Part shown: piece after piece, positions 11,247 to 64,000 of the stretch
Layout of the letters: every line of letters begins with the position of its first letter
Position numbering within the stretch: the first letter of the stretch is position 1
Source of the DNA: Candidatus Latescibacterota bacterium
Lineage (GTDB): Bacteria > Latescibacterota > UBA2968 > UBA8231
Direction: 5' to 3'
NCBI GenBank assembly: GCA_965203175.1
Contig: OZ241867.1
Span: 3,776,001 to 3,840,000, forward strand
DNA length: 64,000 nt
Program-made: the position numbers and the translations under genes
The notes under the pieces: generated by a model
The model's input: the letters and a program-made list of their open reading frames with translations, nothing else
Told to the model about the DNA's origin: nothing
Database searches by the model: none

Positions 11247-12383
11247 TTGCGCGTCTCCGACGACATCTGGGTGCAGGTCGAAGCCGTATTGGACAGAGGC
11301 ACCCGGCTGGCTTTGGCGACCACTGGCGGGGGCAGCGAACTTATTAGCTGGCTCTTGAATCACCCTGGGGCCTCGCGCGCGATCATCGAAGCTCAAGTGC
11401 CCTATAGCGAGCGAGCGCTAGCGGCGTATTTGGCCTTTGCGGGGCCGCATGGGGCAAACGAGCAAACGGCGCGGGATATGGCGGGGCGGGCCTTTGTGCG
11501 GGCTGCTTCCTTTGCCGAGGTGGGGCAAGGCTGCATCGGCGTGGGCTGCAGTGCGGCCTTGGCGACGAGCAGGTTACGGCGCGGCGCGGATCGGGGCTGT
11601 ATCGCGCTGCGTTTGGAGAGTGCCTATCGCTTGTACACTTTGCGTTTTGAGAAGGACGCAGCCGACCGCTTGGAGCAAGAGGAGGTTTTGAGCCGCTTGG
11701 CTTTGGAGGCCATAGTGGAGGCCTGCGGCGGTCCGGTCGCCGGTGCATCGCTGCCGGGCTACGCGCATCTTGTGCGGCGCGAGTTGGCGTTGGACGATCC
11801 GCTGGGTTTGCTGTTTGCGGGGGAGTTGGACGTCGTCGAAATGCGTCCCGATGGGGTGATCGCGCCCGAGGTCGAGCGTGGGCAGCGTCTGTTCTTGTCC
11901 GGGTCCTTCAACCCGCTGCACGAGGGACACGAGCAACTCGTGGCCGCGGCGGGACAGCTAAGTGGCCGGCGGCCGAGTCTGGAACTATCCATCGAAAATG
12001 TCGATAAGCCGCCCCTGCAAAGGAGCGAGGTCGAGCGTCGCTTGGCGCAGATGCGCGGTCGCTTTCCCGTGGTGATGACGCGGTCGCCGACCTTTTTGCA
12101 GAAGGCCTGGCTTTTTGGCGGTTGTCATTTTGCGTTGGGGTATGATACGGCCGTGCGGCTTTTGCAGGGTCAATATTATGACGAGGGAGAGCGGGGCGTG
12201 GCTGCGGCCTTGGAGGAATTTGCCGCTGGGGGCTGTCGCTTTTGGGTTACTGGCCGGGTGGATGGGGATGCGTATCGCACTTTAGAGGATATAGATGTAC
12301 CTGCAGAGTACGCCGATCTTTTCGCGTCGGTGCCCTTTAGGATGGATATCAGTTCTACGGAACTCCGCGCTCGGAAGGCTTAG
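11247..12383 (+). CDS. CinA-C-like domain fused to an HxGH cytidylyltransferase/NMN adenylyltransferase-like domain
   Basis: N-terminal TGGG...PGASR...YS..A (CinA-like); C-terminal [27 protein letters not shown]. Confidence 0.75.
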
Positions 12384-12387
12384 GACA

Positions 12388-12687
12388 ATGGCTGAAGAAG
12401 AATGGGAAGAGCCTGAAGCGGTGGAAGTGCCCATTGACGGCACGCTGGACTTGCACACCTTCCATCCGCGCGACCTCAAAGAGCTGTTGCCCGACTATTT
12501 GGATGCCTGTCGCCAAGCGGGCATTTTGCAGGTGCGCGTCATCCACGGCAAGGGCACGGGCCAATTGCGGCGCTCGGTCCACGCTATTTTGGGCCGCTTG
12601 CCCGAGGTGGAATCATTCCGCTTGGCTGGGGAAGGTGGTGGCGGTTGGGGGGCGACCTTGGTCTGGTTGGTGCCGCTCGACGTTTGA
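12388..12687 (+). CDS. Smr/MutS2 C-terminal domain protein
   Basis: [24 protein letters not shown]; ATG at 12388. Confidence 0.9.
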
Positions 12688-12735: not shown

Positions 12736-12780
12736 GATTGTTACAACTACGTTACAATTTGTATAGTTGTTATAAGTATC
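12736..12780. promoter_or_regulatory. AT-rich upstream region of cassette 1 with a GTTACA-N5-GTTACA direct repeat
   Basis: GTTACAA at 12740-12746 and 12751-12757 (11-bp period), GTTATAA at 12769-12775, and an overlapping inverted repeat ACAACTA/TAGTTGT. Confidence 0.45.
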
Positions 12781-12869: not shown

Positions 12870-14885
12870 ATGGAATATCGTCCTATCGGCCTTCTTTTCA
12901 AGCTACTGCAATCGTTGCAGATAGTCCCTCCTCTGTCAATCCTTCTACTGCTGTCCGTGTGCTCAACCAGCGCACAGGATGTTTTTACGGTTGGCGGCGA
13001 CGAACGTCCTTGGCGCGATTCTGGCACAACTCCCGGGGGCGTGATCGATTTTGTCGAGCAATTGGGAACGATCGAGGACGCCGACGGCGAAAAAGTGTTC
13101 GCCGTTGGGTTGGATTCCCTGCAAAACTGGATTATGCCGCTGCGCTTGCGCTCCGATTTCAACATTTCGCTCGGTGTTCTCGAGCGGGGAGGCTCTATAG
13201 ATATTCCAGGGCTAGATGCCAGCCAGAAAAGTCCAGAGCAACTGGAGGGTATGCTCAATGGCGACCATCGAGTGGCATTTGATCGCAAATTCGTGGCCGG
13301 CCGCATCGTGCGCAACAACGGCGTCACCATTCGCATTGACCTCGGGGCGCGCTTCGGAGTGGACCGGGTCGTGTTCTATCCGAGGATGACAGAGTCGTTT
13401 CCCTTTGGCCACGAATTCATGCGGGGGTATGAGTTGTTCCTCAACGATGGCTTGCCGCAAAACCTCTATGCCAGTGGTCAGCCCATTTTTACCTCGCCGG
13501 TGCAGCGCGACTCAGACAACCGCGAGGCCAGAGTGGACGCACGGATCAATCCCCAATTTGTCCGCTTTCTGCAACTCAAGTCGATTACCACGCTCGGATT
13601 TGAAGTTGACGAGATAGAGGTGTACGGCAGGGGGTTCGTGCCGACAGCCAGCTATGTGTCCAATGTGTTAGATCTGGGCGAGGAGGTGGTTTGGGGGAGC
13701 ATCGATTGGAGCGAAGTGGTCGCGGGGAATAGCGCGGATTCCAAGATAGAAATCCGCGTGCGCAGCGGGCAGGATACGACGCCCGATGTCTTTTTTCGCA
13801 ATGCCAATGTAGGAGGTCGGCAACCCGAATACGTGCCCATCGACAGCGAGGGCAACACGCTGACCAAGGAAGCCTTTGAAAAACTGGCGAAGAACCAGCA
13901 GGGGCCCATCAAATCCGATACGGACAACGGCTGGGTGCAGTGGCAATTGGTCGACAATGGCACCCAGCTAACGGTGCCGGCACCTCGGCGTTATTTCCAG
14001 TTCCGCATCGATTTCACCAACCTGAGCCTGGACGCTAGCCGTGCTGTCGCCGACTTGGGCTTCGAGTTCGCACGGCCCCCGGTTGATCGCATTGTCGCCG
14101 AGGTTGGACCACCGCAGGCCGAGATTGGCAAACAGACGACTTTTACGTACTTCGCCCGCATCACCAATACTACGGGGCGATCGGGATTCACGCGCTTTGA
14201 AATCGAAACCCCGGCCCGCATCGCGGCCCTCCACTCGGTGGAAATCCAAGATGGGTCGGGTAATCGCCTAGATGGAGCTGAGTTCGGCGGGGATCTAGCC
14301 GGTGTGTCTTTGCCCCTGCATGTCGGATCGTTCGCCATTGAGGCGGTGGAGGACGACCACTTTGCCCTAAGCTTGCCTTTGATTAACGCCGATGGTACCC
14401 TGTTGAAGATTGTCTTTGATGCAGCCGTATTCCGCTATGGTACGCGTTTCCAAGGGCGGGCCTTTGCCGATGCCAACGTGCAGGTGCCGCTGCAGACCGA
14501 GGGCGGGGATGCTTCAGCCGAACAGGATACCGACGAGTTGCTGGTGCGGATTCCCGTGGGCTCGCGGGTAGCTGGTCCGCTGGCAATCCAGCCGCGGACC
14601 TTCACCCCCAATGGAGACGGGGCCAATGACGTGGCGGAAATAAGCTACGCGGTTCAGCATTTGCTCGAACCATCGCCGAGCGAAGTAAGTATCTACGACT
14701 TGACGGGTGCCCGCGTGCGGCAGCTCAACTCGGTCGAAGTCCAAAACGGCCGCGTCCAGCTACAGTGGGACGGTCGCGGCGATGACGATCGCTTGGTGCC
14801 GCCGGGAATCTACTTGGCGGTAGTGGAAATTCGCTCCGATCGGAAGACTGACCGGCGGTTCAACAGTGTGTCTGTGGTATACTAG
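12870..14885 (+). CDS. Secreted protein, cassette subclass A: discoidin-like domain plus C-terminal FlgD-Ig/CHU_C-like domain
   Basis: Signal peptide ending STSA-QD; IDLGARFGV.R..FYPR, EIEVYG.GF; C-terminal FTPNGDGAND...WDGR...PGIY...SVVY*. Start moved to ATG 12870. Confidence 0.8.
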   Translation: MEYRPIGLLFKLLQSLQIVPPLSILLLLSVCSTSAQDVFTVGGDERPWRDSGTTPGGVIDFVEQLGTIEDADGEKVFAVGLDSLQNWIMPLRLRSDFNISLGVLERGGSIDIPGLDASQKSPEQLEGMLNGDHRVAFDRKFVAGRIVRNNGVTIRIDLGARFGVDRVVFYPRMTESFPFGHEFMRGYELFLNDGLPQNLYASGQPIFTSPVQRDSDNREARVDARINPQFVRFLQLKSITTLGFEVDEIEVYGRGFVPTASYVSNVLDLGEEVVWGSIDWSEVVAGNSADSKIEIRVRSGQDTTPDVFFRNANVGGRQPEYVPIDSEGNTLTKEAFEKLAKNQQGPIKSDTDNGWVQWQLVDNGTQLTVPAPRRYFQFRIDFTNLSLDASRAVADLGFEFARPPVDRIVAEVGPPQAEIGKQTTFTYFARITNTTGRSGFTRFEIETPARIAALHSVEIQDGSGNRLDGAEFGGDLAGVSLPLHVGSFAIEAVEDDHFALSLPLINADGTLLKIVFDAAVFRYGTRFQGRAFADANVQVPLQTEGGDASAEQDTDELLVRIPVGSRVAGPLAIQPRTFTPNGDGANDVAEISYAVQHLLEPSPSEVSIYDLTGARVRQLNSVEVQNGRVQLQWDGRGDDDRLVPPGIYLAVVEIRSDRKTDRRFNSVSVVY

Positions 14886-14910
14886 GTGCTAGCCAAGTGA
14901 GGAGGGGATT

Positions 14911-17580
14911 TTGAACAAGCGCTATCTGGTTGTGGTAGGTGCTGTTCTCTGCGTGCTAAGCTGGAGTGCGCCGACTCTGGTTGGTGCCCAAGCGTACGAT
15001 TCGCGCATGGGTAGGGTGAAGCAGGGTGGAAAGGTGGATTTTTCCCCGCAGGGACCGGGGGTATTATTCGATGCGCTGGATCCGGCAGTGCGCAAATGGT
15101 ACGTCCCCCAAGAATTGTATCAGGAGTACCAGTGGAGACAGTGGGAATACTCCAACTACGCCCGCGAGCCCTATCAGCGCTATGTCGATACCGCGTTGGA
15201 GGGCGATTTCTTCTACGATTTCTTCGGCAATCTAGTCACCCGAGGCTGGTTGATCTACGATTGGCAGCAAGATCGTCCCCGGCAATTCGGCAGTAGCATT
15301 CTCAAGACCAACCGGTTCAACCAATGGTTCAGCAAAGTAGCCGTCTCCTCGGACCACAAGGGACAATACTACTACAGCATCACGATCGGCGATGAGATCC
15401 GCACTACTTTGACGCCGATGACTTTTTCTAAACCCACATTCAACGGTATTCAGTGGGATTTTGCCGCCGATAAGTACCTGGGCACTCTCCTATTGGCCCG
15501 TCCCAGTCGGCCGGCCGTGGCCACTGATTTGGATATCCCCGATCAGAAGACCAGCGTCACCAACTTGCTGGGTGGGCGGGGCATCGTTCAGGTCGGCGAC
15601 TTCGTCCGGGTCGGGGCGACCTATGTGACCGCCTTCCAAGGCCAGACGCTATTCGACGATTTCACCGGCAACCCTTTTGCCGGCGGGGCTCTGACCACCG
15701 ACCAGAATGCGCTGCCCATATCCCGCATCATTATTCGGCTGTCGGACGACTCGCCCGCAGACGGAGTGGGTGGGGCGGCCCTGTTCGACGATGAAATCAT
15801 CATCGAGGATGTGGACGGCAACACTTTCCGCGGCAGTACCATAGGATTCGAGCCCATACGCGAAGGGGGGTTCCAACGGGTGGGGTTTTTAGCTGCGGAC
15901 GGGGACGAGCGCATTACCCTCACCTACGACTTTACGGACCCTTTGTACACCGGGCCCGATCCTACGACTATTGAAAGAGTATTCTTTGAATTGGTGATCT
16001 CCAACGACTACAAGGTGGAAATCACGTCCGACCGGCAGACCAACCGGGACTCACAGCCCGTCTTCTTGCTGATCGAACGGGCCGATGACAATATCCGCGA
16101 CAACTCCAACCAGCGACTGTTGAAATTCGACTACGGTCTGCCCACGGCCAATACCATCCTTGGCGTTACCTTCGAGGCCAACAAGGTCTGGGGTTTTGAC
16201 TTTTACGGGGAGTACGATTTCAACAAGCAGTACCGCCAGTATCCCAACCTCAATCTAAGGGATCACCGCAAGGCGGTTAACGACGCCCAAGCATGGATGT
16301 TCAACCTGTCCAAGGCATCCTATCCTTGGTTCGCGTTTCTCGAAGGCTATAGCATGGACGCGGACTATTCTACCCGCACCTTCTTAGCTGGTACTCGGGG
16401 ACAGGACGAAATCGATTACGAAGACGAAATATCCTATATCTACGAGTTCGTCGAGGACAACGATGACCAAGACCGCCGGCCGGACTGGAACCGCTATAGT
16501 ATGCTGTCGGACAATGCAGTCTTTCCGGGTTTTGACGAGAACAACGATTTCGTTTCGGATTTCAATCAGAACGATACGGAGGATCGCCAGAACTTCATTC
16601 CCGATTACGAAGAGCCCTTCCTGCGCTATCACGCCGACAGACCCGAATACCTCTTTGGCGTTGACATGAACAACAACGGCTGGATCGATCGCTTTGAAAA
16701 CGACGAAGAACCCGATTATCCCTACGGGCGCGACCACCGTGGCTACAATGTGTACGCGGGAACCCACATCGGGCCCGAGGCTCGGCTAACCGTCGGGCGT
16801 TTGCGCGAAAAACTGCTGGCGGGGGATCGCAAAAACGAATCCACGTACCTGCTCTTCACCTACGAAAGGGATTTTGCCCAGTTGGGCCGTTTGCGGGTGT
16901 TCGACAATTTCAAGTTGGTTGAGGACGACATTCCCAACAACCTGTTCCAGTGGGTGCAGCCGTCTAATTCCCGCGGTACTCAGCAGCGCGTTTTCGATGT
17001 GCTCCCGGCGCGCGACACTTGGGTCAACACTTCCTATGTACAGTTCGATTTCACGCTCGTAGGGAACCTGAATGTAATCAACAAGTTCAAGACTGAAATC
17101 TACAACCAGCGCCGGGAGCAGCGCGACCTGCGCGGCACGGCCAGCTTTGTCGGTCTTATCAACAAGGCCGATTACACTTTCTCCGTGCGAAATATCGAAC
17201 TTGAACCGCGCTTCAAGAGCGAATTTTTGCGCGAGCGCCCCGTTCGCCAGCGCGACCCAGAGCGCCGCGAATTGACCGAGACGCTTTTTCTCATTGCCCG
17301 CATTCCCCTGCTCTCCCATACGCTCGTCGAGTTGGGGCTAGAACTGTCTCATTTTGAGCAGTTCCGCGATGACGACGAGGGAGTGCCGGTCAATCGCGAC
17401 TTGGAGCCAGATTCCTTCAGTCGGATCGTCGCGGTGCAATTTAATAATTCCTCTGATTACTTGGGCTACAGGCTCCATCTGCAGACGGGATTTCGCCTGC
17501 AGAAACTGACGTTTGAAAATCTGCCCCCTAGCACGACCAGCAAGATATTCATGACGGCCTATGCCGGGCTGGAACGCTAG
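14911..17580 (+). CDS. Conserved ~890-aa secreted protein, predicted outer-membrane beta-barrel with Asp/Asn-rich loops
   Basis: GAGGAGG RBS, TTG start, signal peptide; amphipathic beta-strand pattern in the C-terminal third; clear paralog at 53967-56627. Barrel assignment is inferred. Confidence 0.75.
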   Translation: MNKRYLVVVGAVLCVLSWSAPTLVGAQAYDSRMGRVKQGGKVDFSPQGPGVLFDALDPAVRKWYVPQELYQEYQWRQWEYSNYAREPYQRYVDTALEGDFFYDFFGNLVTRGWLIYDWQQDRPRQFGSSILKTNRFNQWFSKVAVSSDHKGQYYYSITIGDEIRTTLTPMTFSKPTFNGIQWDFAADKYLGTLLLARPSRPAVATDLDIPDQKTSVTNLLGGRGIVQVGDFVRVGATYVTAFQGQTLFDDFTGNPFAGGALTTDQNALPISRIIIRLSDDSPADGVGGAALFDDEIIIEDVDGNTFRGSTIGFEPIREGGFQRVGFLAADGDERITLTYDFTDPLYTGPDPTTIERVFFELVISNDYKVEITSDRQTNRDSQPVFLLIERADDNIRDNSNQRLLKFDYGLPTANTILGVTFEANKVWGFDFYGEYDFNKQYRQYPNLNLRDHRKAVNDAQAWMFNLSKASYPWFAFLEGYSMDADYSTRTFLAGTRGQDEIDYEDEISYIYEFVEDNDDQDRRPDWNRYSMLSDNAVFPGFDENNDFVSDFNQNDTEDRQNFIPDYEEPFLRYHADRPEYLFGVDMNNNGWIDRFENDEEPDYPYGRDHRGYNVYAGTHIGPEARLTVGRLREKLLAGDRKNESTYLLFTYERDFAQLGRLRVFDNFKLVEDDIPNNLFQWVQPSNSRGTQQRVFDVLPARDTWVNTSYVQFDFTLVGNLNVINKFKTEIYNQRREQRDLRGTASFVGLINKADYTFSVRNIELEPRFKSEFLRERPVRQRDPERRELTETLFLIARIPLLSHTLVELGLELSHFEQFRDDDEGVPVNRDLEPDSFSRIVAVQFNNSSDYLGYRLHLQTGFRLQKLTFENLPPSTTSKIFMTAYAGLER

Positions 17581-17732
17581 TGGGTTTGATCTTCGCAAAG
17601 TTGAATCAGGTTGGATAACATGGCGACCTGTTAGCAGCGGAAAGGAGGAAAAAAACAGTCGTCATTTCAGCCCCGATTGGGGTAGCAAAAAACACAATGA
17701 CCTCACTAACTAACGGAAAAAGAGGTGTTGCA

Positions 17733-18605
17733 ATGAAGAGGATCAATAAGATAGCAATTGCTTTACTGGTCTCGGCCCTCATGGTCGGCTCGGCTTTTGG
17801 CCACCAAGGGGAGATGAAGTTCATGTTCCAGTTCCCAGATCACCTGACGCCAGTGCTGGACGGCGATATGTCGGACTGGGACATTGTCTCCGATGTATAC
17901 AAGATCAAAGCCGAAACCATGTTCAACCAGTTCGGCGCGCCCATGGATTTGAGCGATTTCAATGCCTCGCTCATTTGGGGCTACAACATCAACGACGGCA
18001 AGGCCTATTTTTCAGCTTGGGTCGCCGACGACTACATCAACAACACCGAGAAGTGGTCGACGACTACAGATTGGGACCACTCCGGCGGCATCTTCCGCGG
18101 CTTCGATCAGGGAGATGATTTCGAGACCCGCTGGGCCAGTGCCCAAGCCCAACGCTACGATTTGGCCGGCCCAATTTTCAGCTCTTCCGGTTACTATACC
18201 CGGATTATTGATGGCTCCAAAGCTTGGGCGGGCCAGTCCCCTTACGTGGAGTGGGCCGGCCAGTTTCTCCGCGGTGACGTCGATACCCAAGAGCCAGCCG
18301 AAATGTTCGGCGAATACTCCATTGTACCCTTTGACGACATCCACCCCGACGGTGCCGACCAGAGCGTTCAACACAGTTGGGTGGAAGGCACAGTTGTTGG
18401 CATAGAGGTCAACTGGGGCGACAAGGATGCCGATCCCGGCTCCTATGACGATGCCTATTGGTCCGGTTTCGGCGGCATAGGTGCCTCTAGGGATGCCGAC
18501 CAGTTCGGCGACTATCTGCTGGCACCCATCGAAGAGGGGTTGCCCGAGGCTAGGGCTACCGGAGTCGAGGCCAGCACTTGGGGCCAGATCAAGTCCACCT
18601 TCTAA
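17733..18605 (+). CDS. Secreted acidic CBM9/DOMON-like protein with a C-terminal TWGxIK motif
   Basis: AGAGGTG RBS; signal peptide ending SAFG; PVLDGDMSDW...W......Y....V.DD pattern typical of CBM9-like domains; ends GVEASTWGQIKSTF*. Confidence 0.7.
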   Translation: MKRINKIAIALLVSALMVGSAFGHQGEMKFMFQFPDHLTPVLDGDMSDWDIVSDVYKIKAETMFNQFGAPMDLSDFNASLIWGYNINDGKAYFSAWVADDYINNTEKWSTTTDWDHSGGIFRGFDQGDDFETRWASAQAQRYDLAGPIFSSSGYYTRIIDGSKAWAGQSPYVEWAGQFLRGDVDTQEPAEMFGEYSIVPFDDIHPDGADQSVQHSWVEGTVVGIEVNWGDKDADPGSYDDAYWSGFGGIGASRDADQFGDYLLAPIEEGLPEARATGVEASTWGQIKSTF

Positions 18606-18653
18606 TAAGGCTGACTTGACTGCCTGTACCATAGACGTTGCAGGATTGTTTCA

Positions 18654-18693
18654 GGCGGGATTTACGGGCGACTGTAAATCCCGCCGTTCTCTT
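18654..18693 (+). terminator. Strong intra-operon stem-loop (partial terminator or mRNA stabiliser)
   Basis: Perfect 12-bp stem GGCGGGATTTAC-8 nt-GTAAATCCCGCC followed by a weak tail, GTTCTCTT. Confidence 0.6.
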
Positions 18694-18722
18694 AGTTGGC
18701 GACCAAGCAAAGGAGGCACTGG

Positions 18723-20573
18723 GTGAGACAAGTGCTGATTATAGTCCTGATAGTGTTGGGAATGGGAGTGGGCTATCGGGCCGAGGCGCGCCAATTTTAC
18801 CAACTGGGGGGCCACGCTGGAAACCTTTGGAGTGAAAGCGGCACTCTGAGTTCTATCGATGTGGCAAGAGTGCCGGGTGCCATCCGCCCGTTCAGCGCCG
18901 AAAGCGGTGAGAACCTGATTGCCTCGATGGGCGGGCGAAATGGCGACATTACCAGCTTGGTGAGCATTTACACCCTACCGGCCAATTGGCTAGAAGAGCG
19001 CGTGTTTGTAGTGGATGGCGATTCTAGTACGGCTTTTGTGCATCCGCCGCGCATCAATTTCTTCCGCGGTCCTGGGTTCTTCTATACTACGCCGATGTTC
19101 TTCGACTTGGGGGCACCATTCCCCATCGAAAGGGTTCGTTTTGCAACTCGTGCTGATCATCCGGGGCACAAGATCCGCCAGTTTAGGCTTTCTATCAACG
19201 ACGGCAGGGAAGAGAGCAAAAACGAAAAAGGAAATCTCATCTGGACCTTGGTTCACGACGAGAAGGACAACTTGAGCCCGGTAGTCGAATTGGATATCGA
19301 ACCCCAAATAGCACGCCACGTCTATCTCCATCCCTTGGAAGTGGGGGAGACTTGGGAGGTGGCCGAGTTCGAAGTGTACGGTCAGGGGTTTGTTCCGCAG
19401 GCCTCATTTCTGTCCGACCCGATTGATCTGGGACGAGCATCCAGTTTGGGGCGCATTTGGTGGAACGGCCAACTCGATTTAGGAGCGAAAATAGTCATCC
19501 AGAGCCGCAGCGGCAGCGATGACCAGCCCGAGGTTTACTGGCGCAAGACCGGGGTGGGTGGAGAGGAAGTGCCACTCGGGGCCAATGGCCAGCCCATGAG
19601 CCGCAAAAATTATGAAGCCATGCCCAAGAACGTGCGGGGGAGCATTACTCAGGATCTGGAAAACTGGAGCGTATGGCACACCTATGAGTATGCGGACGGA
19701 CTCGCCGGCATCCAGATTCGCTCTCCGAGTCCCCGGCAGTATGTGCAGTTACACATCGCTTTTTTCTCCGCCAGATTGGCGGGGGGCCAGATTGACTCGC
19801 TGTTTTTTGAATTTTCCCAACCGCCTGTAGTCTCCGAGGCGATTGGCGAAATCTACCCTCCTTTTGTAGAGTCGGCCGATCCGGTGCGGTTCACCTATGC
19901 GGTGCGAACCCGACTGGAGGAGGATCAAGCGGGTTTCAATGTTTTCGAGGTAAGCACGTCCGCCCGTCTGGAGGCTATCCACGAGGTGCGCATCGACCGC
20001 GAGGTGGTCGATTTTACCCCGAGTTTCGATCCGGCAGATCCCCACCAGTTTGCCGTCCAATTTGACCGCATCGACCAAGATCAGACGCTGCTAGAGGTAG
20101 ATTTTGACGCCCGAGTCTTCAACTATGGAACGGCCTTCAACGGTGCCGTGTCGGATGCGGACAGCGACGAAGTGCCTCAGAGCGTGATCCCCGGAGATGC
20201 TGTGAGCGAGTTGTTGAGTGACGCCTTGAACGTCCGCACGCCGCTCAAGGGCAGTCTGCTCAGTGCCGTGCAGGTGGTGCCCAACCCGTTTTCACCCAAT
20301 GGAGACGGCGTCAATGACCAAGTGCAGTTCTCCTATACATTACTGCGTCTGACCGATGCCGTGCCCCTTGAGACGGAAATCTACACGCTGGCGGGAAACC
20401 GAGTGCGCACTTTGGGCGCTGGGGAGGGGGGGAGCGCGCTCTATCAAACTGCTTGGGACGGGCGAGATGACCAAGGCGAATTGGTAGCCCCAGGGCTATA
20501 CATTTATCGCGTCGTGGTAGAAGCGGGCAGTGGCCGGGAGGAACGACTGGGGTCTATCGCTTTGGTGTACTGA
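18723..20573 (+). CDS. Secreted protein, cassette subclass A (discoidin-like plus FlgD-Ig/CHU_C-like C-terminus)
   Basis: AGGAGG RBS, GTG at 18723, signal peptide ending AEA; FDLGAPF, EFEVYGQGF, RSGSDDQP; FSPNGDGVND...WDGRD...ALVY*. Confidence 0.8.
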   Translation: MRQVLIIVLIVLGMGVGYRAEARQFYQLGGHAGNLWSESGTLSSIDVARVPGAIRPFSAESGENLIASMGGRNGDITSLVSIYTLPANWLEERVFVVDGDSSTAFVHPPRINFFRGPGFFYTTPMFFDLGAPFPIERVRFATRADHPGHKIRQFRLSINDGREESKNEKGNLIWTLVHDEKDNLSPVVELDIEPQIARHVYLHPLEVGETWEVAEFEVYGQGFVPQASFLSDPIDLGRASSLGRIWWNGQLDLGAKIVIQSRSGSDDQPEVYWRKTGVGGEEVPLGANGQPMSRKNYEAMPKNVRGSITQDLENWSVWHTYEYADGLAGIQIRSPSPRQYVQLHIAFFSARLAGGQIDSLFFEFSQPPVVSEAIGEIYPPFVESADPVRFTYAVRTRLEEDQAGFNVFEVSTSARLEAIHEVRIDREVVDFTPSFDPADPHQFAVQFDRIDQDQTLLEVDFDARVFNYGTAFNGAVSDADSDEVPQSVIPGDAVSELLSDALNVRTPLKGSLLSAVQVVPNPFSPNGDGVNDQVQFSYTLLRLTDAVPLETEIYTLAGNRVRTLGAGEGGSALYQTAWDGRDDQGELVAPGLYIYRVVVEAGSGREERLGSIALVY

Positions 20574-20582
20574 ATAGAAGAT

Positions 20583-22322
20583 ATGAGACACAGAAAACCA
20601 TGGACTTGGCAAGGATGCGGGTTGGTACTCATGTGGAGTCTCGCGGCGTGTTCGCCGAGTGCGGAGGTCGTCCTTGAACCCGGTGTGGTGGCGCGCATTG
20701 ATTCCACGTCTATCTCGGCTGCCGAAATGCGCGATTTCGTCGTCCAGATGCCCCAGTCCTTGCGCCTTCAGGGACAGGGCGATCCAGTGCGGAAGCGCTA
20801 CCTGCGCAGTCTGCTGGGCAAGTACCTGATCGTACTGGAGGCCAAAGAGCGGGGATTGGACACCGCTCAGGTGGTCCAGACTAAGGCGATGCAGTACTGG
20901 CGTCAGCACTTGGTCGATACCTATCGCCAGATCGCATTGGTGCCCAACGTGCAGGTTTCTGAGGAGGAGGTACGAGACTATTTCGCCCGCAGTGGCCTAG
21001 GCCGCAAGCGCCAGATGGCGGGCATTCTGGTGGAAGAGGACAGCACCGCAAAGCAAATCTATGAGCAACTCAAAGCGGGTGGGGATTTTGCCCAACTGGC
21101 CGCCGAATATACCATAGACGAACGGTCGGCTACCCAAGGGGGCGTGTTGGGATTTATCGATCTGGAGCAGGCCCGCAGGTTGCAGATTCCAGACGAGCTG
21201 TTTCGCAGTCTGCCGAGTGGACAGCTATCCCCGATTCTGCCCATGGGCACGCGCTACCAAATTGTGCGTTTCCTCCAGGATCAGCCCGTTCCGCTAGAGG
21301 AGAAACGACAGCAGATTCGTGCTATGCTCTACGAACGCAAGCGACTAGAGCAGGAAAGGGCGGAAATCGCGTCCCTTACCCGCAAACTGGACGTGCAGCT
21401 AGTGCCAGAGGGATTGGAGCTTCTATTGAATAAAGCGGCGCTCCACACCCGGGTACGCCTCACTCATCTGACCACCGAGGAGGCAGATCAGCCCCTCTTT
21501 ACCTATGAGGCGGGTCAGATCTCTCTGGGGGATTACCTCAATGCCCTGTGGGGGGATATGCGGGCCCTGTCCGGCTGGGGGGTACGGGACAGTGCCGAGG
21601 TGGTTGATACAGCGAAGGAACTGGTCTTGACTCCGGTTTTATTGGCAGAGGCGGCGCAGCGGGCCGGGTTAGAGGAGATGGCGGATGGACAACAGCGATG
21701 GCGGGAAATACGCACAGAATTCATGATTAAACAGTTACGCCAGGAAGAAGTCATTGACCAATCCGAGGCAAGCTTGGAAGAAGCTAGGGATTTTTACGAG
21801 GACAATGAGGATTTGTTCAGGGAACCGGCCCAATACATTGTAGTTGAGGTGCTGGTCGAGACCGAGGCGGAAGCCGTTGGTTTGCTGCGCGCCATCGAAC
21901 AAGGTGCGACTCTGGGAATGCTTGCCCAAAAGCACACCATCCGCCAAGGTATGCAGGAAGAAGATGGCTTGATGCATTTGGGCGAGTACGAGCGGCTGAC
22001 TCTGCCGCGGCTCTTCAAGGCAGTAAAAGCGACCGACCTCAACAAAATCACCGGCCCGGAGCACGTTGAAGGCGGATACAGCATTTTCAAGGTTCTCAAT
22101 CGCCAGGGAGGGGAAGTATCTCCCTTTTTTCAAGTCGAAAAAAAGGCGCGGGCTTTGGTGCGCGGAGAGAAGCGAGAGCAACTGTTCGAGGAATTGATAG
22201 ATGACTTGCTGGACAAGTACAAAGAGCGGATCGCCGTATCTGACAGCGCGTTGGCGGCGGCCCTACCCGATACGTTCCTGCAGCCCCATGCACGGGAAGC
22301 CCCAACCAAGGGCGATAGTTAG
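20583..22322 (+). CDS. SurA/PrsA-like lipoprotein with two parvulin (rotamase) domains
   Basis: Lipobox LAAC; EAKERGLD SurA-N-like helix; DFAQLAAEYTID...GGVLGFI; second domain EVLVETE...LAQKHT. Confidence 0.8.
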   Translation: MRHRKPWTWQGCGLVLMWSLAACSPSAEVVLEPGVVARIDSTSISAAEMRDFVVQMPQSLRLQGQGDPVRKRYLRSLLGKYLIVLEAKERGLDTAQVVQTKAMQYWRQHLVDTYRQIALVPNVQVSEEEVRDYFARSGLGRKRQMAGILVEEDSTAKQIYEQLKAGGDFAQLAAEYTIDERSATQGGVLGFIDLEQARRLQIPDELFRSLPSGQLSPILPMGTRYQIVRFLQDQPVPLEEKRQQIRAMLYERKRLEQERAEIASLTRKLDVQLVPEGLELLLNKAALHTRVRLTHLTTEEADQPLFTYEAGQISLGDYLNALWGDMRALSGWGVRDSAEVVDTAKELVLTPVLLAEAAQRAGLEEMADGQQRWREIRTEFMIKQLRQEEVIDQSEASLEEARDFYEDNEDLFREPAQYIVVEVLVETEAEAVGLLRAIEQGATLGMLAQKHTIRQGMQEEDGLMHLGEYERLTLPRLFKAVKATDLNKITGPEHVEGGYSIFKVLNRQGGEVSPFFQVEKKARALVRGEKREQLFEELIDDLLDKYKERIAVSDSALAAALPDTFLQPHAREAPTKGDS

Positions 22323-22358
22323 GTAGATACGTAGGTACGTCTTTTAGGACAATAGGTT

Positions 22359-25043
22359 ATGGGACACCGTTTACTTGCACAGTACTCGATGATTTTGGAG
22401 ACAGCCGCGAGGAGATCGACGCTCTGTTTTGTAGCCCTTTTTCTCCCGATGGCTATAAACGGGGCATGGGCCCAGTCGAAGGGTTACAGTTTGGGGGCGG
22501 ATCGGGTGGAGGTGCGGACCCAGGCGCATTGGCAGGCTTGGGAGTTTCCGAGCGATATGGTGACCATAACGCCGTCTGGCTCGGTGCAGTCCAGATTCAT
22601 ACAAGTCCCGCACAACGCCATATTGAATGTGGCCGACTTCAGCTATCCCATTGATGGCAACTTGCAAGATCAGTACGCCAATTCGTTCAAGGATGAAGAC
22701 AACAATCTGATGGCGCGCGGCGGCATCAAAAGGGCTGGTTCAAATCCGCAGCTAGCGGAGCGGGCCATTGACGCAGATCCGACTACAGCTTGGGAACCGG
22801 ACTCGGTCGATCCCCTGCGGGACTGGGTGTTGGAGATTGATCTTGGCCGTCTAGTGTCGGCTACCAAGGTCGTTGTGCGCTTTGCCGAAGAAGGGGATCC
22901 GTTTCTGCAATTCAGGGTGCATTCGGCAGGGGGACAAAACCCCTTTGGCACGGCTGACCGCAGCGGTGCCTTGGACTACACTATAGTGGGCAGTACTACC
23001 CAACCCAATCGCGACCAGCGAGTCTTTGAGTTCGACCTCGCACCACTGGGCACCCATACAGAAGAGTGGACCGGTCGCATTATGCAGTACCTGCGCGTCG
23101 CGGCCACGGCCACCAATGGCGAACGGGCGCAACAGCTCTCTGCCGAGGAGTATCAGGCGTTGGCAGCAGAGAATCAAGGCGCGGTGGAATACGTCTGGAA
23201 AATCGCTGACGAAGAGCGTCTAGTAACGGCCGAGCGCTACGATCAGTTGCCACTTGAGCAGCAGGGTGGGGTGCGCTATTACCGCCGCGAACGGCCCCAA
23301 CTCGCCGAGGTGGAGGTGTGGACTATAGGCGAGAACATTGCCTTGGGAATCGTAGAGCGCGGCGGTAATTTACACGATGTCAATCCCAATTCTTCGCCTG
23401 AACTTGCCGTTGACGGCAACGTGCGCACCGAGTGGCAGGGCATGGTTTACTTTCCCACCGGAGAGACCGCTGAGTGGGGCCTGTTGAACGTGAATCTGGG
23501 CTCTCACTTTTTGGTCCATGCCGTGCGCATCATTACCCGCGTCGGAGGCAGAAACCTGATTGGCTATATATTGCGCGGTTCGGACGGCTCGCTGGCACCC
23601 GATGGCAGTTTGATCTGGGAGGAATTGAGTGGTGAGACGCGGCAGTTAAACCAGAATACGCGGCTGTTCGAGGATCACTTCGAGCCGCGCCCAATACGCT
23701 TTCTGGAATTTCGCAACCTAGATATTGCCCGCCGCACTAGGGCCCATGAAGGGCACCGGATACTGAGCACGGTAACCGAAATCCAAGTTTTTGCCAACGG
23801 ACACCTACCGATCCTCGAGATGACTTCCGACCTCATTGATCTGGGAAGTTCCAAGACGCTGACGACCATCGACTGGGAAGCCGACATCCCCTCGGGCACG
23901 GCGGTGGAAGTTCGCACTCGCACGGGAAACGATCTGCGCGAAGTAAACCGCTATTTCAAAAAAGATGGCACGGAAGTAGCCAACAAAGAAGAATACGAGA
24001 AGCAACCGTCTTTCTATCAGGGGGATATCCTTACCGAGTTCCTGCCGGGACCGGGCTGGAGCAACTGGAGTCAAGTCTACGTCAAACCGGGCGAAGTCAT
24101 ACGTTCCCCCAATCCCCGGCGCTATATGATGATCCAGGCGAGACTGCTCAGTGCAGACGCGGCCGAGGCCGCTAGCTTAGAGTCGATCCAAGTCCATTTC
24201 ACAGCGCCGCTAGTGGATCGCATCGCTGGGGAGATAGAGCCCAAGCGAGATGTCCCCAGTGGCGAGCTCACGGATTTCGACCTCTTTATCCGTCCCTCCT
24301 TTGCTGCTCGAGACCCGGGATTCGACCGCATCCGTCTCGTCGCGCCTTCGCGAGCGAATATTGAACTGCGCCAAGTGAGTTTAGGAGACGAAAGCGATTT
24401 TGCCGCCGGAAGTGAGGAAATATTTGCCGAGGTGGAAAAAGGCCGTTTTGAAAATGGAGTGGGGGAGGAACTGGAATTGACTAAGGTGGCAAGTGATACG
24501 CTGCACCTCGGCTTGCCAAGAATACTACGGCGAGGCAGTGCGGATATTGTGCGGATCTCTTTTTCGTCGCGTGTTTTCCTGAGCGGTGCCACTTTTGCAG
24601 CCGAAGTTGGGCGCTCGACGCAAGCAGATAACTGGCAGCGGGTGGACCCAGCGGACCCGGTAGGAGATGAATTAGCCGCTGGTGAGGGGTTGACAGTATT
24701 GACGACTGCCCGCCGCGGGCAGATCGGGACAATCGAGGTAGATCCCGCCACTTTTACCCCCAATGGCGACGGCATCAACGACACGGCTGTCTTTTCGTTT
24801 GCCGTACTCAAAGTCAATGTAGCTAGGCAAGTAGCGGTGTATTTATACGACCTAGCAGGCAGGGAAGTGAGGCACCTTTCTGAGAGGCGCAATATGGCGA
24901 ATGGGCTGTATAGCCTTGCCTGGGACGGACGGGACGAAGGGGGAACGTTAGTGTCTCCGGGCCTTTACCTCGCCCGCATTGAGGTAGATGACGACGCAGG
25001 GGATGACAACTCGGCTGTTCGCCTAGTTGGGGTGGCGTATTGA
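22359..25043 (+). CDS. Secreted protein, cassette subclass B (two discoidin-like domains plus FlgD-Ig/CHU_C-like C-terminus)
   Basis: Signal peptide ending AWA-QS; AIDADPTTAWEP, EIDLGR, LAEVEVW, EVRTRTG; FTPNGDGIND...WDGRD...GVAY*. Confidence 0.8.
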   Translation: MGHRLLAQYSMILETAARRSTLCFVALFLPMAINGAWAQSKGYSLGADRVEVRTQAHWQAWEFPSDMVTITPSGSVQSRFIQVPHNAILNVADFSYPIDGNLQDQYANSFKDEDNNLMARGGIKRAGSNPQLAERAIDADPTTAWEPDSVDPLRDWVLEIDLGRLVSATKVVVRFAEEGDPFLQFRVHSAGGQNPFGTADRSGALDYTIVGSTTQPNRDQRVFEFDLAPLGTHTEEWTGRIMQYLRVAATATNGERAQQLSAEEYQALAAENQGAVEYVWKIADEERLVTAERYDQLPLEQQGGVRYYRRERPQLAEVEVWTIGENIALGIVERGGNLHDVNPNSSPELAVDGNVRTEWQGMVYFPTGETAEWGLLNVNLGSHFLVHAVRIITRVGGRNLIGYILRGSDGSLAPDGSLIWEELSGETRQLNQNTRLFEDHFEPRPIRFLEFRNLDIARRTRAHEGHRILSTVTEIQVFANGHLPILEMTSDLIDLGSSKTLTTIDWEADIPSGTAVEVRTRTGNDLREVNRYFKKDGTEVANKEEYEKQPSFYQGDILTEFLPGPGWSNWSQVYVKPGEVIRSPNPRRYMMIQARLLSADAAEAASLESIQVHFTAPLVDRIAGEIEPKRDVPSGELTDFDLFIRPSFAARDPGFDRIRLVAPSRANIELRQVSLGDESDFAAGSEEIFAEVEKGRFENGVGEELELTKVASDTLHLGLPRILRRGSADIVRISFSSRVFLSGATFAAEVGRSTQADNWQRVDPADPVGDELAAGEGLTVLTTARRGQIGTIEVDPATFTPNGDGINDTAVFSFAVLKVNVARQVAVYLYDLAGREVRHLSERRNMANGLYSLAWDGRDEGGTLVSPGLYLARIEVDDDAGDDNSAVRLVGVAY

Positions 25044-50933: not shown

Positions 50934-51740
50934 ATGGCACTCAAGATGGGATACGCGACCCTGCGCTGGCGGCAGCCGGATTTGGCAAAGGCTCTGCCCG
51001 AGCTCAAAAAGGCCGGTTGGGACGGCTGGGAGGGACGGTTGCCTCTCGACTGGCTGGGGCCGCCGCAGCGGCTGAAGCAAGTGTGCGAAGACGCGGATAT
51101 GCCGCTGTGCGTATTTACGGCTAGTGGCTCGCCTGAAGACCGCGACTGGGAGCACACGGAGCGCAACAAGCGGCGGATGGATTTCGCCGCGGAGATGGGC
51201 GTGGATTGCTTCATGTTTATGAGCGGTCGCAAGCCAGAGGGACGGCCAGCGGAACGCGCTGATATCGAGCGGGCGGCCGAGGGGGCCGAGCAATGGGCCG
51301 AGTACGCCGCTCAGTACGGGCTGGAGCTAAGCTACCACATCCACACCAACTTGCTGGTGGATTCGGCCGAGGATTGGCGGCTGTACATGAGTTTGCTGGA
51401 CAAAACGCGGCTGTGCATTGATGTCTCGCACGCCGAGTTGTGGGACTATGATCCGGTGCAGTCGCTGACGGACTTTTGGGATCAGCTCAACTACGTCCAC
51501 CTACAGGATTATACGTCTTGCACGGTGCGCGAGCCGGGACGCTACAATCCCGAGTGGGTTTCAGTCGGCGAGGGCGAGTGCCTCGACTTTGCCGGGGTGC
51601 TCAACACGCTCGCCGAGCGGGGCTTTGATCGCTGGGTGACCAGTTGTCCAGGCGAGCCGGCCTACGAGGGCGAGGACCCAGTCAGCGAGGCGCGGCGGAG
51701 TGCGGGGATGCGCCAGTATTTGCGCGGGTTGGGGTACTAG
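50934..51740 (+). CDS. Sugar-phosphate isomerase/epimerase TIM-barrel protein (IolE/AP-endonuclease-2-like)
   Basis: GWDGWE, YHIH, CIDVSH, YVHLQD, GEG..DF; AAGGAGG RBS. Confidence 0.78.
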   Translation: MALKMGYATLRWRQPDLAKALPELKKAGWDGWEGRLPLDWLGPPQRLKQVCEDADMPLCVFTASGSPEDRDWEHTERNKRRMDFAAEMGVDCFMFMSGRKPEGRPAERADIERAAEGAEQWAEYAAQYGLELSYHIHTNLLVDSAEDWRLYMSLLDKTRLCIDVSHAELWDYDPVQSLTDFWDQLNYVHLQDYTSCTVREPGRYNPEWVSVGEGECLDFAGVLNTLAERGFDRWVTSCPGEPAYEGEDPVSEARRSAGMRQYLRGLGY

Positions 51741-59600: not shown

Positions 59601-59912
59601 GAGGTTCATAATCGCCCGATCCGCCTTGCGAATGCCCGGTTGGTCCACGGGTTTGGCAAATACCGCGCGATCTTCGGCGATGATGTTGTACACGTGGCGG
59701 AAGAAATGAGGCTTGACCGTCCCGTCTGGATGCACATCGACTACGTGCGAGGGCCCGGTCCAGTGTCGCCAATAGGAAGCCTTATCGACGATGATGCGAT
59801 CGCCCTGCAGACGGTGGCCTAAGGGCGCTTGGGCACTGACTTGCTGGAGGGCCAAACACCCAAAAGCTAAGGCCCAAATCCGGCTCCAACGGCTATATCG
59901 CTTGCGGTTCAT
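56652..59912 (-). CDS. Secreted protein, cassette subclass B (paralog of 22359-25043)
   Basis: Signal peptide ending VSA-QA; VDGDRDTFWEP, EIDLGR, RERPRLAEVEVW, EVRTRTG, GWSPWSQ; FTPNGDGIND...WNGRD...AVVY*. Confidence 0.8.
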   Translation of the reverse strand: MNRKRYSRWSRIWALAFGCLALQQVSAQAPLGHRLQGDRIIVDKASYWRHWTGPSHVVDVHPDGTVKPHFFRHVYNIIAEDRAVFAKPVDQPGIRKADRAIMNLQRTPTLEADGSFTVSKAEQLIKFLNRDFKRFPGNHSQIPLNGRLLTIVDTTLSGDGKTVTLSLRDERTGVESTREFGAKDKIAFPVYDYVQRVGVSRVGSNEALAPYIVDGDRDTFWEPDLAATPDKWWIEIDLGRTVVVEKVVLHFVDETLGDPFRQFRVMLAPQQKLIQAQSRVLQFKVVGQTRAPNTNQRTMAFSSEDTPGFSEDDDDRTEWTGRMAQTVRILIGDSKLGRAHQIDQAAWDALPADERGDILYYIRDDVGFEEPVEQAIYESLPQEQQGRKEYYLRERPRLAEVEVWGWGDNLSPKLIDGGGSVSFTGPEVPAGGFDGDWNTTFRMPAWFSTNPTAGILTVDIGARVWLDAMRLAVPFIPGYITEVADGSRDPNGRLRWRQVSLPDRMEGGFKRAADRFDPPLDIRFLNLRLPGIARTSGFFYDLTEVLLYTEGFVSQASLVSDIIRLPGPRNFGAIRWDPPPGTHPSGTTAEVRTRTGDLLVQQIRHFDVNGNEKTKEEWDKLISSWKGPIDTTFALGSGWSPWSQQYLQPGDRVRSPGLRNYMQLQVRFTSQDRLQAASISSIEVELAPPVARALTAEVWPTQAAVGQLDTFDLYLRPVFIDEPAADRTPGFDEILLQAPPGLALHLLSLSTGTEEELGRGSPLQTFTLAADGNLTDAAGAIAQVRRNHADSIWVLLPQLHQTLPAEQAVQTYHRITPQGAEVMVGEDGDLITEVAYGLLNEAERGAILFLRQTASGLAAVSGRAEYDDLPSAEQGPIRYFRKLRGGGAQSPFDALGDSLTRATYRALPRAERGAILGQGPLIHLRFAAAIFRNGTTFKPFVRRAAAGTDGSLWQQVEPGDATALTDSRQLTLSIPVGGQVLGDLSLAPNPFTPNGDGINDELTVAFSIFQVTQARQARLRLYSLDGRLIWENSTQVSGGPQQIRWNGRDAADRTVPPGLYICRIDFGADSDRATDTALARIVAVVY

Positions 59913-63650: not shown

Positions 63651-63660
63651 GCTCCGGCTC

Positions 63661-64000
63661 CTAGTAGGCGACCGAAATGGTGCCGACTTGTTCTTCTGCA
63701 CCTTCATCGGTGTCTAGTCGAATGCGGTAGATATAGACCCCTGGGGACACTAGACGGCCGTCGGACCGGCGGCCATCCCAAGAATACTCTACTATTCCGG
63801 TTTTGGTCTGCGTGGTAGCCAAGGTCTGTACTTCGTGGCCCGAGAGGTCGTACAGGGACACTTGTAGGGGCCGGCGCACGACCACTTCGCGCACATCAAA
63901 AGACAGTTGCGCAATGTCGTTGACTTGGTCGTTGTTGGGGGTAAAAGGGTTGGGATGCACTCGCACATCCGTCAACAGCCGACCACCCACGCGGGTGCGC
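63661..64000 (-). CDS. C-terminal part of a further FlgD-Ig/CHU_C-domain protein, truncated by the window edge
   Basis: PNPFTPNNDQVND...YDLSG...WDGR...PGVY...SVAY*. Confidence 0.8.
   Translation of the reverse strand, partial: RTRVGGRLLTDVRVHPNPFTPNNDQVNDIAQLSFDVREVVVRRPLQVSLYDLSGHEVQTLATTQTKTGIVEYSWDGRRSDGRLVSPGVYIYRIRLDTDEGAEEQVGTISVAY

Follow-up and report, generated by a model that had tools for sequence, protein, structure and literature searches.

The closest described relatives of the gene set analyzed here belong to Bacteroidota's type IX secretion system (T9SS). There, type-A cargo leaves the SprA translocon on PorV (portions of PMC10994853, PMC9143113 and PMC12618676), and type-B cargo leaves on PorP/SprF-like barrels that are cognate to it, encoded by linked genes, and go on to anchor it; examples are SprB-SprF and Fjoh_3952-3951 of Flavobacterium johnsoniae, and PG1035-PorP-PorE of Porphyromonas gingivalis (portions of PMC9143113 and PMC12618676). 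The F. johnsoniae translocon carries a peptidyl-prolyl isomerase (PPIase) subunit of unknown function and a tetratricopeptide-repeat (TPR) lipoprotein (portions of PMC10994853). We studied a stretch of 64,000 nucleotides, hereafter the window, from a Candidatus Latescibacterota bacterium (assembly GCA_965203175.1, contig OZ241867.1, positions 3,776,001 to 3,840,000), which holds two gene cassettes of a kind that recurs across this genome. They are built from lectin-like proteins of two families, A and B, a large protein X, a parvulin lipoprotein P and a small secreted protein C, joined in the second cassette by a TPR protein, T. Positions are those of the window unless they are given as genome positions.

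The cassette appears to be a variant of the type-B logic of cargo and carrier barrel rather than a system without counterpart. Like the type-B/PorP-SprF pairs, it has a C-terminal beta-sandwich of the CHU_C kind on the cargo, a cargo gene linked to an outer-membrane barrel gene, cognate cargo-barrel pairs that diverge together, and a separate type-A class in the same genome. X, by contrast, is unrelated in sequence to PorP/SprF and about 890 aa long; its predicted 24 or so strands are combined with an inserted beta domain, and it has an acidic block that resembles an EF-hand. Other differences are that no PorP/SprF or PorE-like partner was found in this genome, that a parvulin lipoprotein, a protein of the CBM9/DOMON kind and TPR/GT-C proteins are extra members of the cassettes, that 168 cargo proteins and 62 barrels are present here where F. 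johnsoniae is reported to have 12 type-B substrates, and that the cassettes are found in Latescibacterota and the PorP/SprF systems in Bacteroidota. An earlier, first-pass annotation of this DNA had held that neither type-B T9SS loci nor chaperone-usher loci have this exact composition. The pairing of type-B cargo with a cognate carrier barrel is a clear closest relative.

Because the cassette reproduces the logic of type-B cargo, private barrel, PPIase and TPR protein, we propose that X carries and anchors A and B as a non-homologous counterpart of PorP/SprF, and we give this proposal an even chance of being correct. If X does play this role, the T9SS logic of a shared translocon with private carrier barrels would reach beyond Bacteroidota, and evolution would have arrived at it twice, here by means of a barrel that is far bigger and not related. 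These cassettes, with 168 lectin-like cargo proteins and 62 barrels, take up about 9% of a 6.6-Mb genome in an uncultured lineage with close relatives in data sets labelled as sponge or marine. They provide a concrete hypothesis for how these bacteria bind their surroundings, and several testable handles: X, the middle region of A and B, the DUF6785/6784 proteins, the CBM9 proteins with a His pair, and a candidate C-terminal tag.

Cassettes in the window and across the genome

Cassette 1 consists of six genes on the plus strand (12870-25043), which the listing of open reading frames (ORFs) and their translations place in the order A1 (12870-14885), X (14911-17580), C (17697-18605), A2 (18696-20573), P (20583-22322) and B (22359-25043), the order that the first-pass annotation had given. 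The genes are tightly packed, with spacings of 25, 116, 90, 9 and 36 nt. At all six N-termini, where export signals had been claimed, a hydrophobic, signal-like stretch is visible by eye, and P has the lipobox LAAC at residues 20-23. The ATG of A1 at 12870 is codon 76 of a longer TTG frame beginning at 12645.

Cassette 2, on the minus strand, reads A-P-B-X-T and comprises A3 (61596-63707), P2 (59939-61594), B2 (56652-59912), X2 (53967-56627) and T (51737-53986). In the genome map it extends past the end of the window, where a further A and a C follow together with a membrane protein of the DUF6785/6784 kind, whose gene lies just beyond (genome 3842993-3844933). Components of the two cassettes are 34-48% identical: BLASTP gives 48% over the full length for X and the 886-aa X2, 35% for A1/A3 (E 9e-103) and for B1/B2 (E 2e-99; B1 is the B of cassette 1), and 34% for P1/P2 (E 1e-84). 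A1 and A2 are also 35% identical (E 6e-83). Four of the five component types had been thought to recur here with the order A-P-B preserved; the order is indeed preserved, but all five types recur.

The host genome is a single contig of 6.58 Mb (59% G+C, 93% complete). ORFs were called crudely, from the first ATG, GTG or TTG to the next stop and with at least 100 aa, and families were assigned on these ORFs by BLAST and hidden Markov models (HMMs), with the window proteins as BLASTP queries. The genome has 62 X, 38 P, 35 C, 99 A, 69 B and 32 T. Most X copies (51 of 62) are at least 40% identical to that of cassette 1, and the other 11 are 25-29% identical. The X genes form 41 clusters that span 573,726 bp, or 8.7% of the genome. 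A, B, C, P and X occur together in 24 of these clusters, and A, B, P and X in 7 more; recurrent gene orders are P-B-X-T-A-A-X-C, C-A-B-A-X-X-P, P-C-A-X-A-B and A-A-B-X-P, with spacings mostly between -4 and 150 nt. The gene set is far beyond chance because it recurs 41 times in the genome.

Across cassettes, the pairwise identities within one component family track those within another (Mantel r of 0.88 for X-B, 0.86 for B-C, 0.82 for X-C, 0.71 for P-B, 0.67 for X-P and 0.63 for P-C), and none of 999 label permutations reached these values. The correlation shows the cassettes duplicating and diverging as units, which does not by itself imply physical contact between their products.

The divergent X subfamily (25-29% identity) is arranged differently: one A/B gene is followed by a tandem of two or three barrels, and neither P nor C is present (genome 5638369-5650904, 6154009-6164891, 6511322-6526567 and 2792466-2802400). 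This is also the arrangement of distant Latescibacterota families.

Lectin-like proteins with type-B-like secretion tails

A and B are lectin-like proteins of the CBM32/discoidin kind. Searched against the PDB, the A-family profile matches the CBM32/discoidin modules 4a41, 4lks and 2v72 at positions 78-219 (E 1e-4 to 5e-4), and FlgD, the Fn3 domain of C5a peptidase and the C-terminal domain (CTD) of PorU at positions 516-605; for the middle region of about 300 residues, nothing was matched in this search. Among the B proteins, B2 passes the discoidin model F5_F8_type_C (32.1 bits, cut-off 28.2) and several paralogs score 29.8-43.4 bits in PF00754/PF22633-type matches, whereas the larger lectin-like B of cassette 1 (23.6 bits in its discoidin-like region) and most A proteins stay under the Pfam discoidin cut-off.

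Their tails resemble the type-B CTD. CHU_C (PF13585) reaches its 27-bit cut-off in four of the five A/B proteins of the window, A1 (35.0 bits), A2 (28.7), B2 (34.5) and A3 (35.4), and falls under it in B of cassette 1 (25.2). Besides CHU_C, FlgD_ig matches the C-termini of A1, A2 and B (37.3 bits in A1). A1 ends in ...VVY, and B ends in ...VAY. An HMM built on the A/B tails found 243 ORFs with a C-terminal CTD match, of which 168 are A/B proteins and 75 are not. A terminal Tyr is present in 168 of the 168 A/B proteins and in 1 of the 75 others, most of which end in Lys or Arg; the motif [FL][ST]PN[GN]DG.[NY]D is present in 87 of the 168 and in none of the 75. In 20 further A/B proteins, CHU_C matched every time from profile position 2-7 (E<=0.01), at or above its 27-bit cut-off in 9, and Por_Secre_tail matched none. 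All of five non-cassette CTD proteins match Por_Secre_tail, at 17.8-21.5 bits and below its cut-off, together with a stronger FlgD_ig match. The CHU_C matches and the motif census bear out the earlier suggestion that A and B carry type-B-like CTDs with an FTPNGDG.ND motif.

The two groups of tails also differ in location. Most A/B genes have an X at a distance of 10 kb or less (120 of 168; median 3.3 kb), against 10 of the 75 other CTD genes (median 54 kb). The genome holds two CTD classes, type-B-like A/B proteins beside X and type-A-like proteins far from X. A/B genes that lack a neighboring X mostly form A-B pairs or arrays, e.g. A-B-A-B-A-A-B; they are found at genome 5505519-5521029 and other sites.

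X, a predicted large outer-membrane barrel

X has no Pfam match at E<=10 and no NCBIfam match at E<=0.01, and its profile matched none of the PDB sequences at E<=1. An AF2 model from an alignment of 11 sequences reached moderate confidence (pLDDT 62, pTM 0.60). It shows long antiparallel strands at residues 143-244, 402-482 and 609-886, about 24 strands by our count, and a beta-rich insert at about 272-390; confidence is low over the first 140 residues and from 515 to 604. The best fold match is the SlpA barrel 7zgx_A (Z 14.9, rmsd 8.2 A over 423 residues, identity about 10%, Foldseek E 5e-9), followed by MtrB, LptD and FimD/PapC in Foldseek and VIA-align. In fold class and size, X is like LptD-LptE, MtrB-MtrA/C, FimD/PapC and the SlpA of Deinococcus (Z 9.5-14.9), and it shares with them the idea of a wide barrel that houses or holds another protein. 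It differs from them in having no sequence similarity and an rmsd of 5-8 A or more, and their partners are not encoded here. The prediction for X is thus a large beta-barrel of the outer membrane, as had been supposed for the 890-aa protein; because porins score nearly as well, the structural matches give its fold class, not its family.

Conservation in X is highest at residues 61-120, 161-180 and 541-620. The acidic, Asp/Asn-rich block at about 505-610 has a conservation of 0.70-0.80 over 51 paralogs and is modeled with low confidence. It contains the loop DMNNNGWIDRFE (residues 585-596; 16663-16698, plus strand), which we take to be of the EF-hand type, and in which D585, N587, N589, D593, R594, F595 and E596 are invariant in 11 paralogs. 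X matched neither model of the PorP/SprF family (PF11751, TIGR03519), and its 889 aa compare with about 300 aa for that barrel. Two other candidate families were tried and rejected: DUF5916 (hhalign probability 0.7% against six DUF5916 proteins of this genome) and DUF6029, a lead from the ESM Atlas (score 0.89; hhalign probability 0.13% against the one DUF6029 protein of the genome). A complex prediction of X (27-889) with the tail of C (255-302) gave ipSAE values of 0.00 and 0.00, which, having been obtained without controls, carry no verdict.

The match to SlpA raises the alternative of a variable surface coat, in which X would be an abundant, SlpA-like tethering barrel and A and B an exchangeable lectin coat for attaching to a host or being recognized by it, the paralogous cassettes providing variation rather than substrate range. 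The huge expansion of the cassette families fits such a coat, and so does the origin of the sequencing runs with near-identical DNA, which are mostly labelled as sponge or marine metagenomes. Yet neither an S-layer homology (SLH) domain nor another periplasmic tether domain was detected in X by Pfam at E<=10, and the superposition on SlpA is poor in both rmsd and identity. We regard this alternative as highly improbable.

Distribution of the cassettes

We searched a sample of 151 genomes of the phylum with an X profile built from 11 paralogs. It matched 94 of them, including all 63 of the same family, with tens of candidates in each of these, and none of 49 genomes in two sister families of the same class. 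The first-pass annotation had named many cassettes per genome, in one lineage and with a fixed set of components, as what would support its proposal; this is what the 41 clusters, 24 of them complete, and the presence of X throughout the family amount to. At E<=1e-3, the X family has 1051 representatives among 1.84 billion proteins. Named relatives are labelled Latescibacterota, or are metagenome-assembled genomes labelled Gemmatimonadota, Handelsmanbacteria or Planctomycetota. All are called "hypothetical protein" at the source, and none has a Pfam domain. Full-text literature searches returned no paper describing the module, X or DUF6785. In two papers on Latescibacteria genomes, looked up by term in the text outside the supplements, "discoidin", "Por secretion" and "isomerase" occur 0 times (PMC4454575), as do "secretion", "outer membrane", "isomerase" and "discoidin" (PMC12993501).

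The neighborhood of X is similar elsewhere. Among 58 loci of other genomes with full 10-kb flanks around X, many of which are orthologous in close relatives and not independent, A-like genes occur at 58, B-like genes at 56, C at 53, P at 52 and DUF6785 genes at 32; A or B is found together with C and P at 47. In the distant families that we label f10 and f14, a B/A-like CTD protein lies directly upstream of two or three tandem X, and P and C were not found at the X loci examined. By our tally, a profile of the A/B CTD matches at E<=1e-20 in 83 of the 94 X-positive genomes and in none of the 57 X-negative ones. The clearest independent contrast is in family f8, where A/B-type tails occur only in the single X-positive genome.

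Secretion machinery and the proposed role of X

The genome encodes SprA (SprA_N, 82 bits in a 2133-aa frame) and PorU (632 bits, cut-off 420), and a PorV-like gene adjoins PorU (147 bits, under the cut-off of 250). By these matches, the core outer-membrane parts of a T9SS, SprA/Sov, PorV and PorU, appear to be in place. PorP/SprF was not found with TIGR03519, whose best score, 21 bits, falls on the PorV-like gene, nor with PF11751, for which the control was silent and the sensitivity is unproven. These absences, like those given below for the motor, apply to a 93%-complete genome and to models built from other phyla.

In the mechanism that we propose, Sec would take A and B across the inner membrane, and the single SprA-type T9SS translocon of the genome would take them across the outer one. 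The cognate barrel X would then receive them and hold them at the cell surface, playing for type-B-like cargo the carrier role of PorP/SprF while being unrelated to it in sequence and about three times larger. P may be a cassette-specific periplasmic folding or holding factor, and C a further subunit that binds a ligand or cofactor; T, often fused to a GT-C-like domain, and the DUF6785/6784 protein would be frequent accessories. For A and B we infer SprA-dependent secretion, binding of the CTD by X, surface exposure and sugar binding.

Several observations weigh against this proposal. Of the T9SS components named for a genome check in the first-pass annotation (SprA, PorV, PorU and GldKLMN), the outer-membrane ones were found, the PorV as a PorV-like gene, but GldM/PorM had no match, with a silent control, and the matches to GldK cover only its FGE-sulfatase-like part and score no higher than 84 bits (cut-off 350). 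The canonical T9SS motor and ring are unconfirmed in this genome. Some tail models also disagree with a type-B assignment: the NCBIfam type-B model TIGR04131 scores 16.6-25 bits on the A/B proteins of the window (cut-off 35), and A3 passes the type-A model TIGR04183 (28.5 bits, cut-off 23). Moreover, 48 of the 168 A/B genes have no X within 10 kb and would be cargo that needs X in trans, and in family f7 the X arrays are accompanied by C and DUF6785, with strong A/B-type CTDs lacking nearby. Genomes of kin are not independent, so that the phylogenetic association of X with the tails rests on few contrasts. Finally, the contact between X and the CTDs is itself inferred, and X, with its size of about 890 aa, its inserted domains and its lack of homology to PorP/SprF, may do more than carry cargo, or something else.

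The undetected motor genes would suit a different arrangement, in which X itself translocates A, B and perhaps C independently of the T9SS, in the manner of an usher or a two-partner system and with P as the chaperone. X does align to the usher barrels FimD/PapC (Z 11.4-11.5) and to FhaC and TamA (11-12), and with 38 copies of P there is a private chaperone-like protein for such a role in the cassettes. However, porins and many unrelated barrels reach the same range of Z, and no usher, POTRA, PapD or fimbrial Pfam match was found among the cassette proteins. The A/B tails match T9SS CTD models and the PorU CTD, the genome keeps SprA, PorU and PorV, and P and C are missing at the distant X loci examined. 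We consider this arrangement very unlikely; like the SlpA-like coat, it is a weaker alternative to X as carrier and anchor. Two earlier suggestions lack support. That the module itself exports proteins is indicated by nothing that we found, and export is more simply left to the T9SS translocon of the genome. The analogy with chaperone-usher loci fails as well, because the searches turned up neither an usher nor a chaperone of the PapD type, and the terminal Tyr simply closes the CTD. The hetero-oligomeric complex suggested earlier is conjectural for A and B.

C, its histidine pair and its C-terminal tag

C has 302 aa as called; its likely start is Met13 (17733), and the mature protein would begin at His36 (17802-17804). 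The window copy has no Pfam match at E<=10 and no NCBIfam match, but a paralog passes PF06452 (27.1 bits, cut-off 23.4) and the family profile matches 1i82 at E 6.4e-4. An AF2 model of the mature protein from 16 sequences (pLDDT 76, pTM 0.79) superposes on 1i82_A, the CBM9 from xylanase 10A of Thermotoga maritima, with Z 18.4 and rmsd 2.6 over 180 of 189 residues, and Foldseek matches it to 7nwo at E 1e-8. By fold and by family profile, C is a secreted protein of the CBM9/DOMON fold, as the first-pass annotation had recognized in calling it CBM9-like. Further relatives by fold are the gamma subunit of ethylbenzene dehydrogenase (Z 11.6), NxrC (10.9) and the cytochrome domain of cellobiose dehydrogenase (7.1). 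Unlike these relatives, C is a stand-alone secreted protein with an N-terminal His, a second His in a DxDH motif and a C-terminal tag, and the window copy scores below the Pfam thresholds.

The two histidines are the predicted mature N-terminal His36 and, 92 residues later, His128 (18078-18080) in the DxDH motif. Among the 35 C proteins encoded here, 29 carry the pair, six have neither His and none has only one; among 77 C proteins beside X in other genomes, 68 have both, eight neither, and one is unclear because of an alignment gap. Since the pair co-varies and DOMON relatives bind haem, it suggests a shared site for a metal or haem. The copper-binding histidine brace of proteins like the lytic polysaccharide monooxygenases (LPMOs) was considered for this site; the mature N-terminal His is a prediction, and the fold is CBM9/DOMON, not that of a known LPMO.

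The tag TGVEASTWGQIK of C (18558-18593, plus strand) has the family consensus TAVExxSWGxIK, in which T288, V290, E291, W295 and K299 are invariant in 15 paralogs. Genome-wide, 103 ORFs have W[GA]x[ILV]K among their final 25 residues, whereas random internal windows gave 4, and the bearers other than C have unrelated folds and include PD40/WD40 propeller arrays and Cache-domain proteins. A degenerate DNA pattern for the tag is frequent in genomes with the main type of X (up to 69 matches, 0-1 in controls); in the X-free sister families it does not rise above background, and some X-rich genera lack it too. From this pattern of occurrence, TAVExxSWGxIK(xxF) looks like a candidate general C-terminal sorting or docking signal of about 100 secreted proteins. 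Genes with the tag often form tandem arrays, next to which lie sigma-54 activators and FG-GAP proteins whose CTDs are type-A-like (e.g. genome 1361532-1376241, 4966210-4983946 and 5057660-5066094).

P, T and neighboring genes

The description of P as a tandem-parvulin lipoprotein was accurate. Rotamase_2 (61.0 bits, cut-off 27) and Rotamase (53.2 bits, cut-off 21.7) match separate regions, 154-229 and 399-519, P2 matches Rotamase_2 at 64.6 bits, and most of the 38 copies have a lipobox. NCBIfam equivalogs all score far under their cut-offs on P, which gives it no named orthologue among them. T of cassette 2 combines TPR families with a polytopic N-terminal domain; it has 10 hydrophobic segments and a PMT_2 match just short of the cut-off (25.6 against 26.1 bits). 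The 32 copies of T are TPR-rich, and 18 of them have such an N-terminal domain, with weak matches to PMT_2, a GT-C glycosyltransferase family. We take this architecture to recall the eukaryotic TMTC O-mannosyltransferases, and by this analogy T could glycosylate cassette proteins.

Proteins with DUF6785 and DUF6784 (about 650 aa, 9-14 hydrophobic segments) are often in the cassette operon. They adjoin 18 of the 41 clusters here, in addition to the 32 loci elsewhere; further examples are those of our loci L097 and L111 (1904-3889). A survey of 76 unclassified neighbors in 20 cassette regions found DUF6785/6784 in six regions, and also parts of sugar ATP-binding cassette (ABC) transporters, PL4, GH5+CBM4_9, a sulfatase, a formylglycine-generating enzyme (FGE), three GDSL esterases and an FGGY kinase.

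These neighbors bear on another role for the cassettes, as nutrient-capture loci akin to polysaccharide utilization loci (PULs). In such loci A, B and C would bind a glycan and X would serve as a channel for import without TonB, its conserved N-terminal segment and its acidic, Ca-binding segment acting as the gate, with DUF6785/6784 or a nearby ABC transporter for passage across the inner membrane. Likenesses to SusC/SusD PULs or utilisomes include the many diverged loci, the combination of a barrel with surface carbohydrate-binding proteins, and the enzymes or importers sometimes found nearby. The CBM32-like modules of A and B, the CBM9 fold of C, the 41 diverged cassettes in one genome, and the DUF6785, transporter and enzyme genes listed above all favor this role.

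The cassettes nevertheless differ from SusC/SusD PULs in having no TonB Plug, SusD or surface lipoproteins, in the T9SS tails on their binding proteins and in their few enzymes. Most neighbors are not carbohydrate enzymes, and there are none beside the two window cassettes. The earlier remark that the cassette has no SusC/SusD or TonB-dependent receptor is confirmed by the family scan, in which neither window cassette has a Plug domain or a SusD-like protein and X has no Plug or TonB_dep_Rec match in Pfam. The genome does have 31 Plug proteins, all elsewhere, of which four lie within 10 kb of a cassette against 6.5 expected, which is no enrichment. An open channel of 24 strands would leak. We see import through X as possible, though we doubt it; it would be compatible with X as the anchor of A and B.

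A more elaborate version unites these elements in a machine for capturing nutrient or host glycans on a diderm surface, of a third, so far undescribed kind, in which CBM32 lectins delivered by the T9SS would be docked on a giant Ca-binding barrel that doubles as the entry channel, the His pair of C would form a metal or haem center acting on the bound substrate, and the tag would be a new sorting or docking signal of this lineage. As a whole, this combination seems quite unlikely to us.

Other families recur beside the cassettes. FG-GAP/ASPIC-UnbV proteins of about 550-740 aa are present in 24 copies at 16 clusters and beside 22 of the 58 loci elsewhere; examples are found at our loci L098, L112 (17439-19082) and L121 (604-2295). 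Small lipoproteins of about 260 aa recur as well. By contrast, the 471-aa Nramp-like gene and the 378-aa gene just upstream of cassette 1, and the convergent Rieske-protein genes downstream of it, were considered and rejected as cassette parts, as they do not recur at other cassettes. A small ORF just upstream of cassette 1 (12295-12687, plus strand) resembles an Smr-type domain by eye and is apparently not a cassette part.

Regulatory features and presence in RNA libraries

In the AT-rich gap 5' of A1 there is a weak sigma-70-like promoter match (12738-12767, plus strand). Sigma-70-like sites in the region are at chance level (5 observed, 6.0 expected from shuffles), and so are the hits of a terminator scan (12 observed, 13.2 expected). 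A G+C-rich stem-loop of 14 bp lies directly 3' of the C stop codon (18654-18685, plus strand).

Metatranscriptome contigs from four runs of two studies, 95-99% alike to the window, cover parts of A1, X, C, A2 and B. Such cover indicates presence in RNA libraries only, where DNA may also be present, and not a level of expression. In four runs the contigs over C have a much higher word depth than those over X, a measure that cannot rank genes. One contig, covering 17782-20539, bridges C and A2 across the stem-loop.

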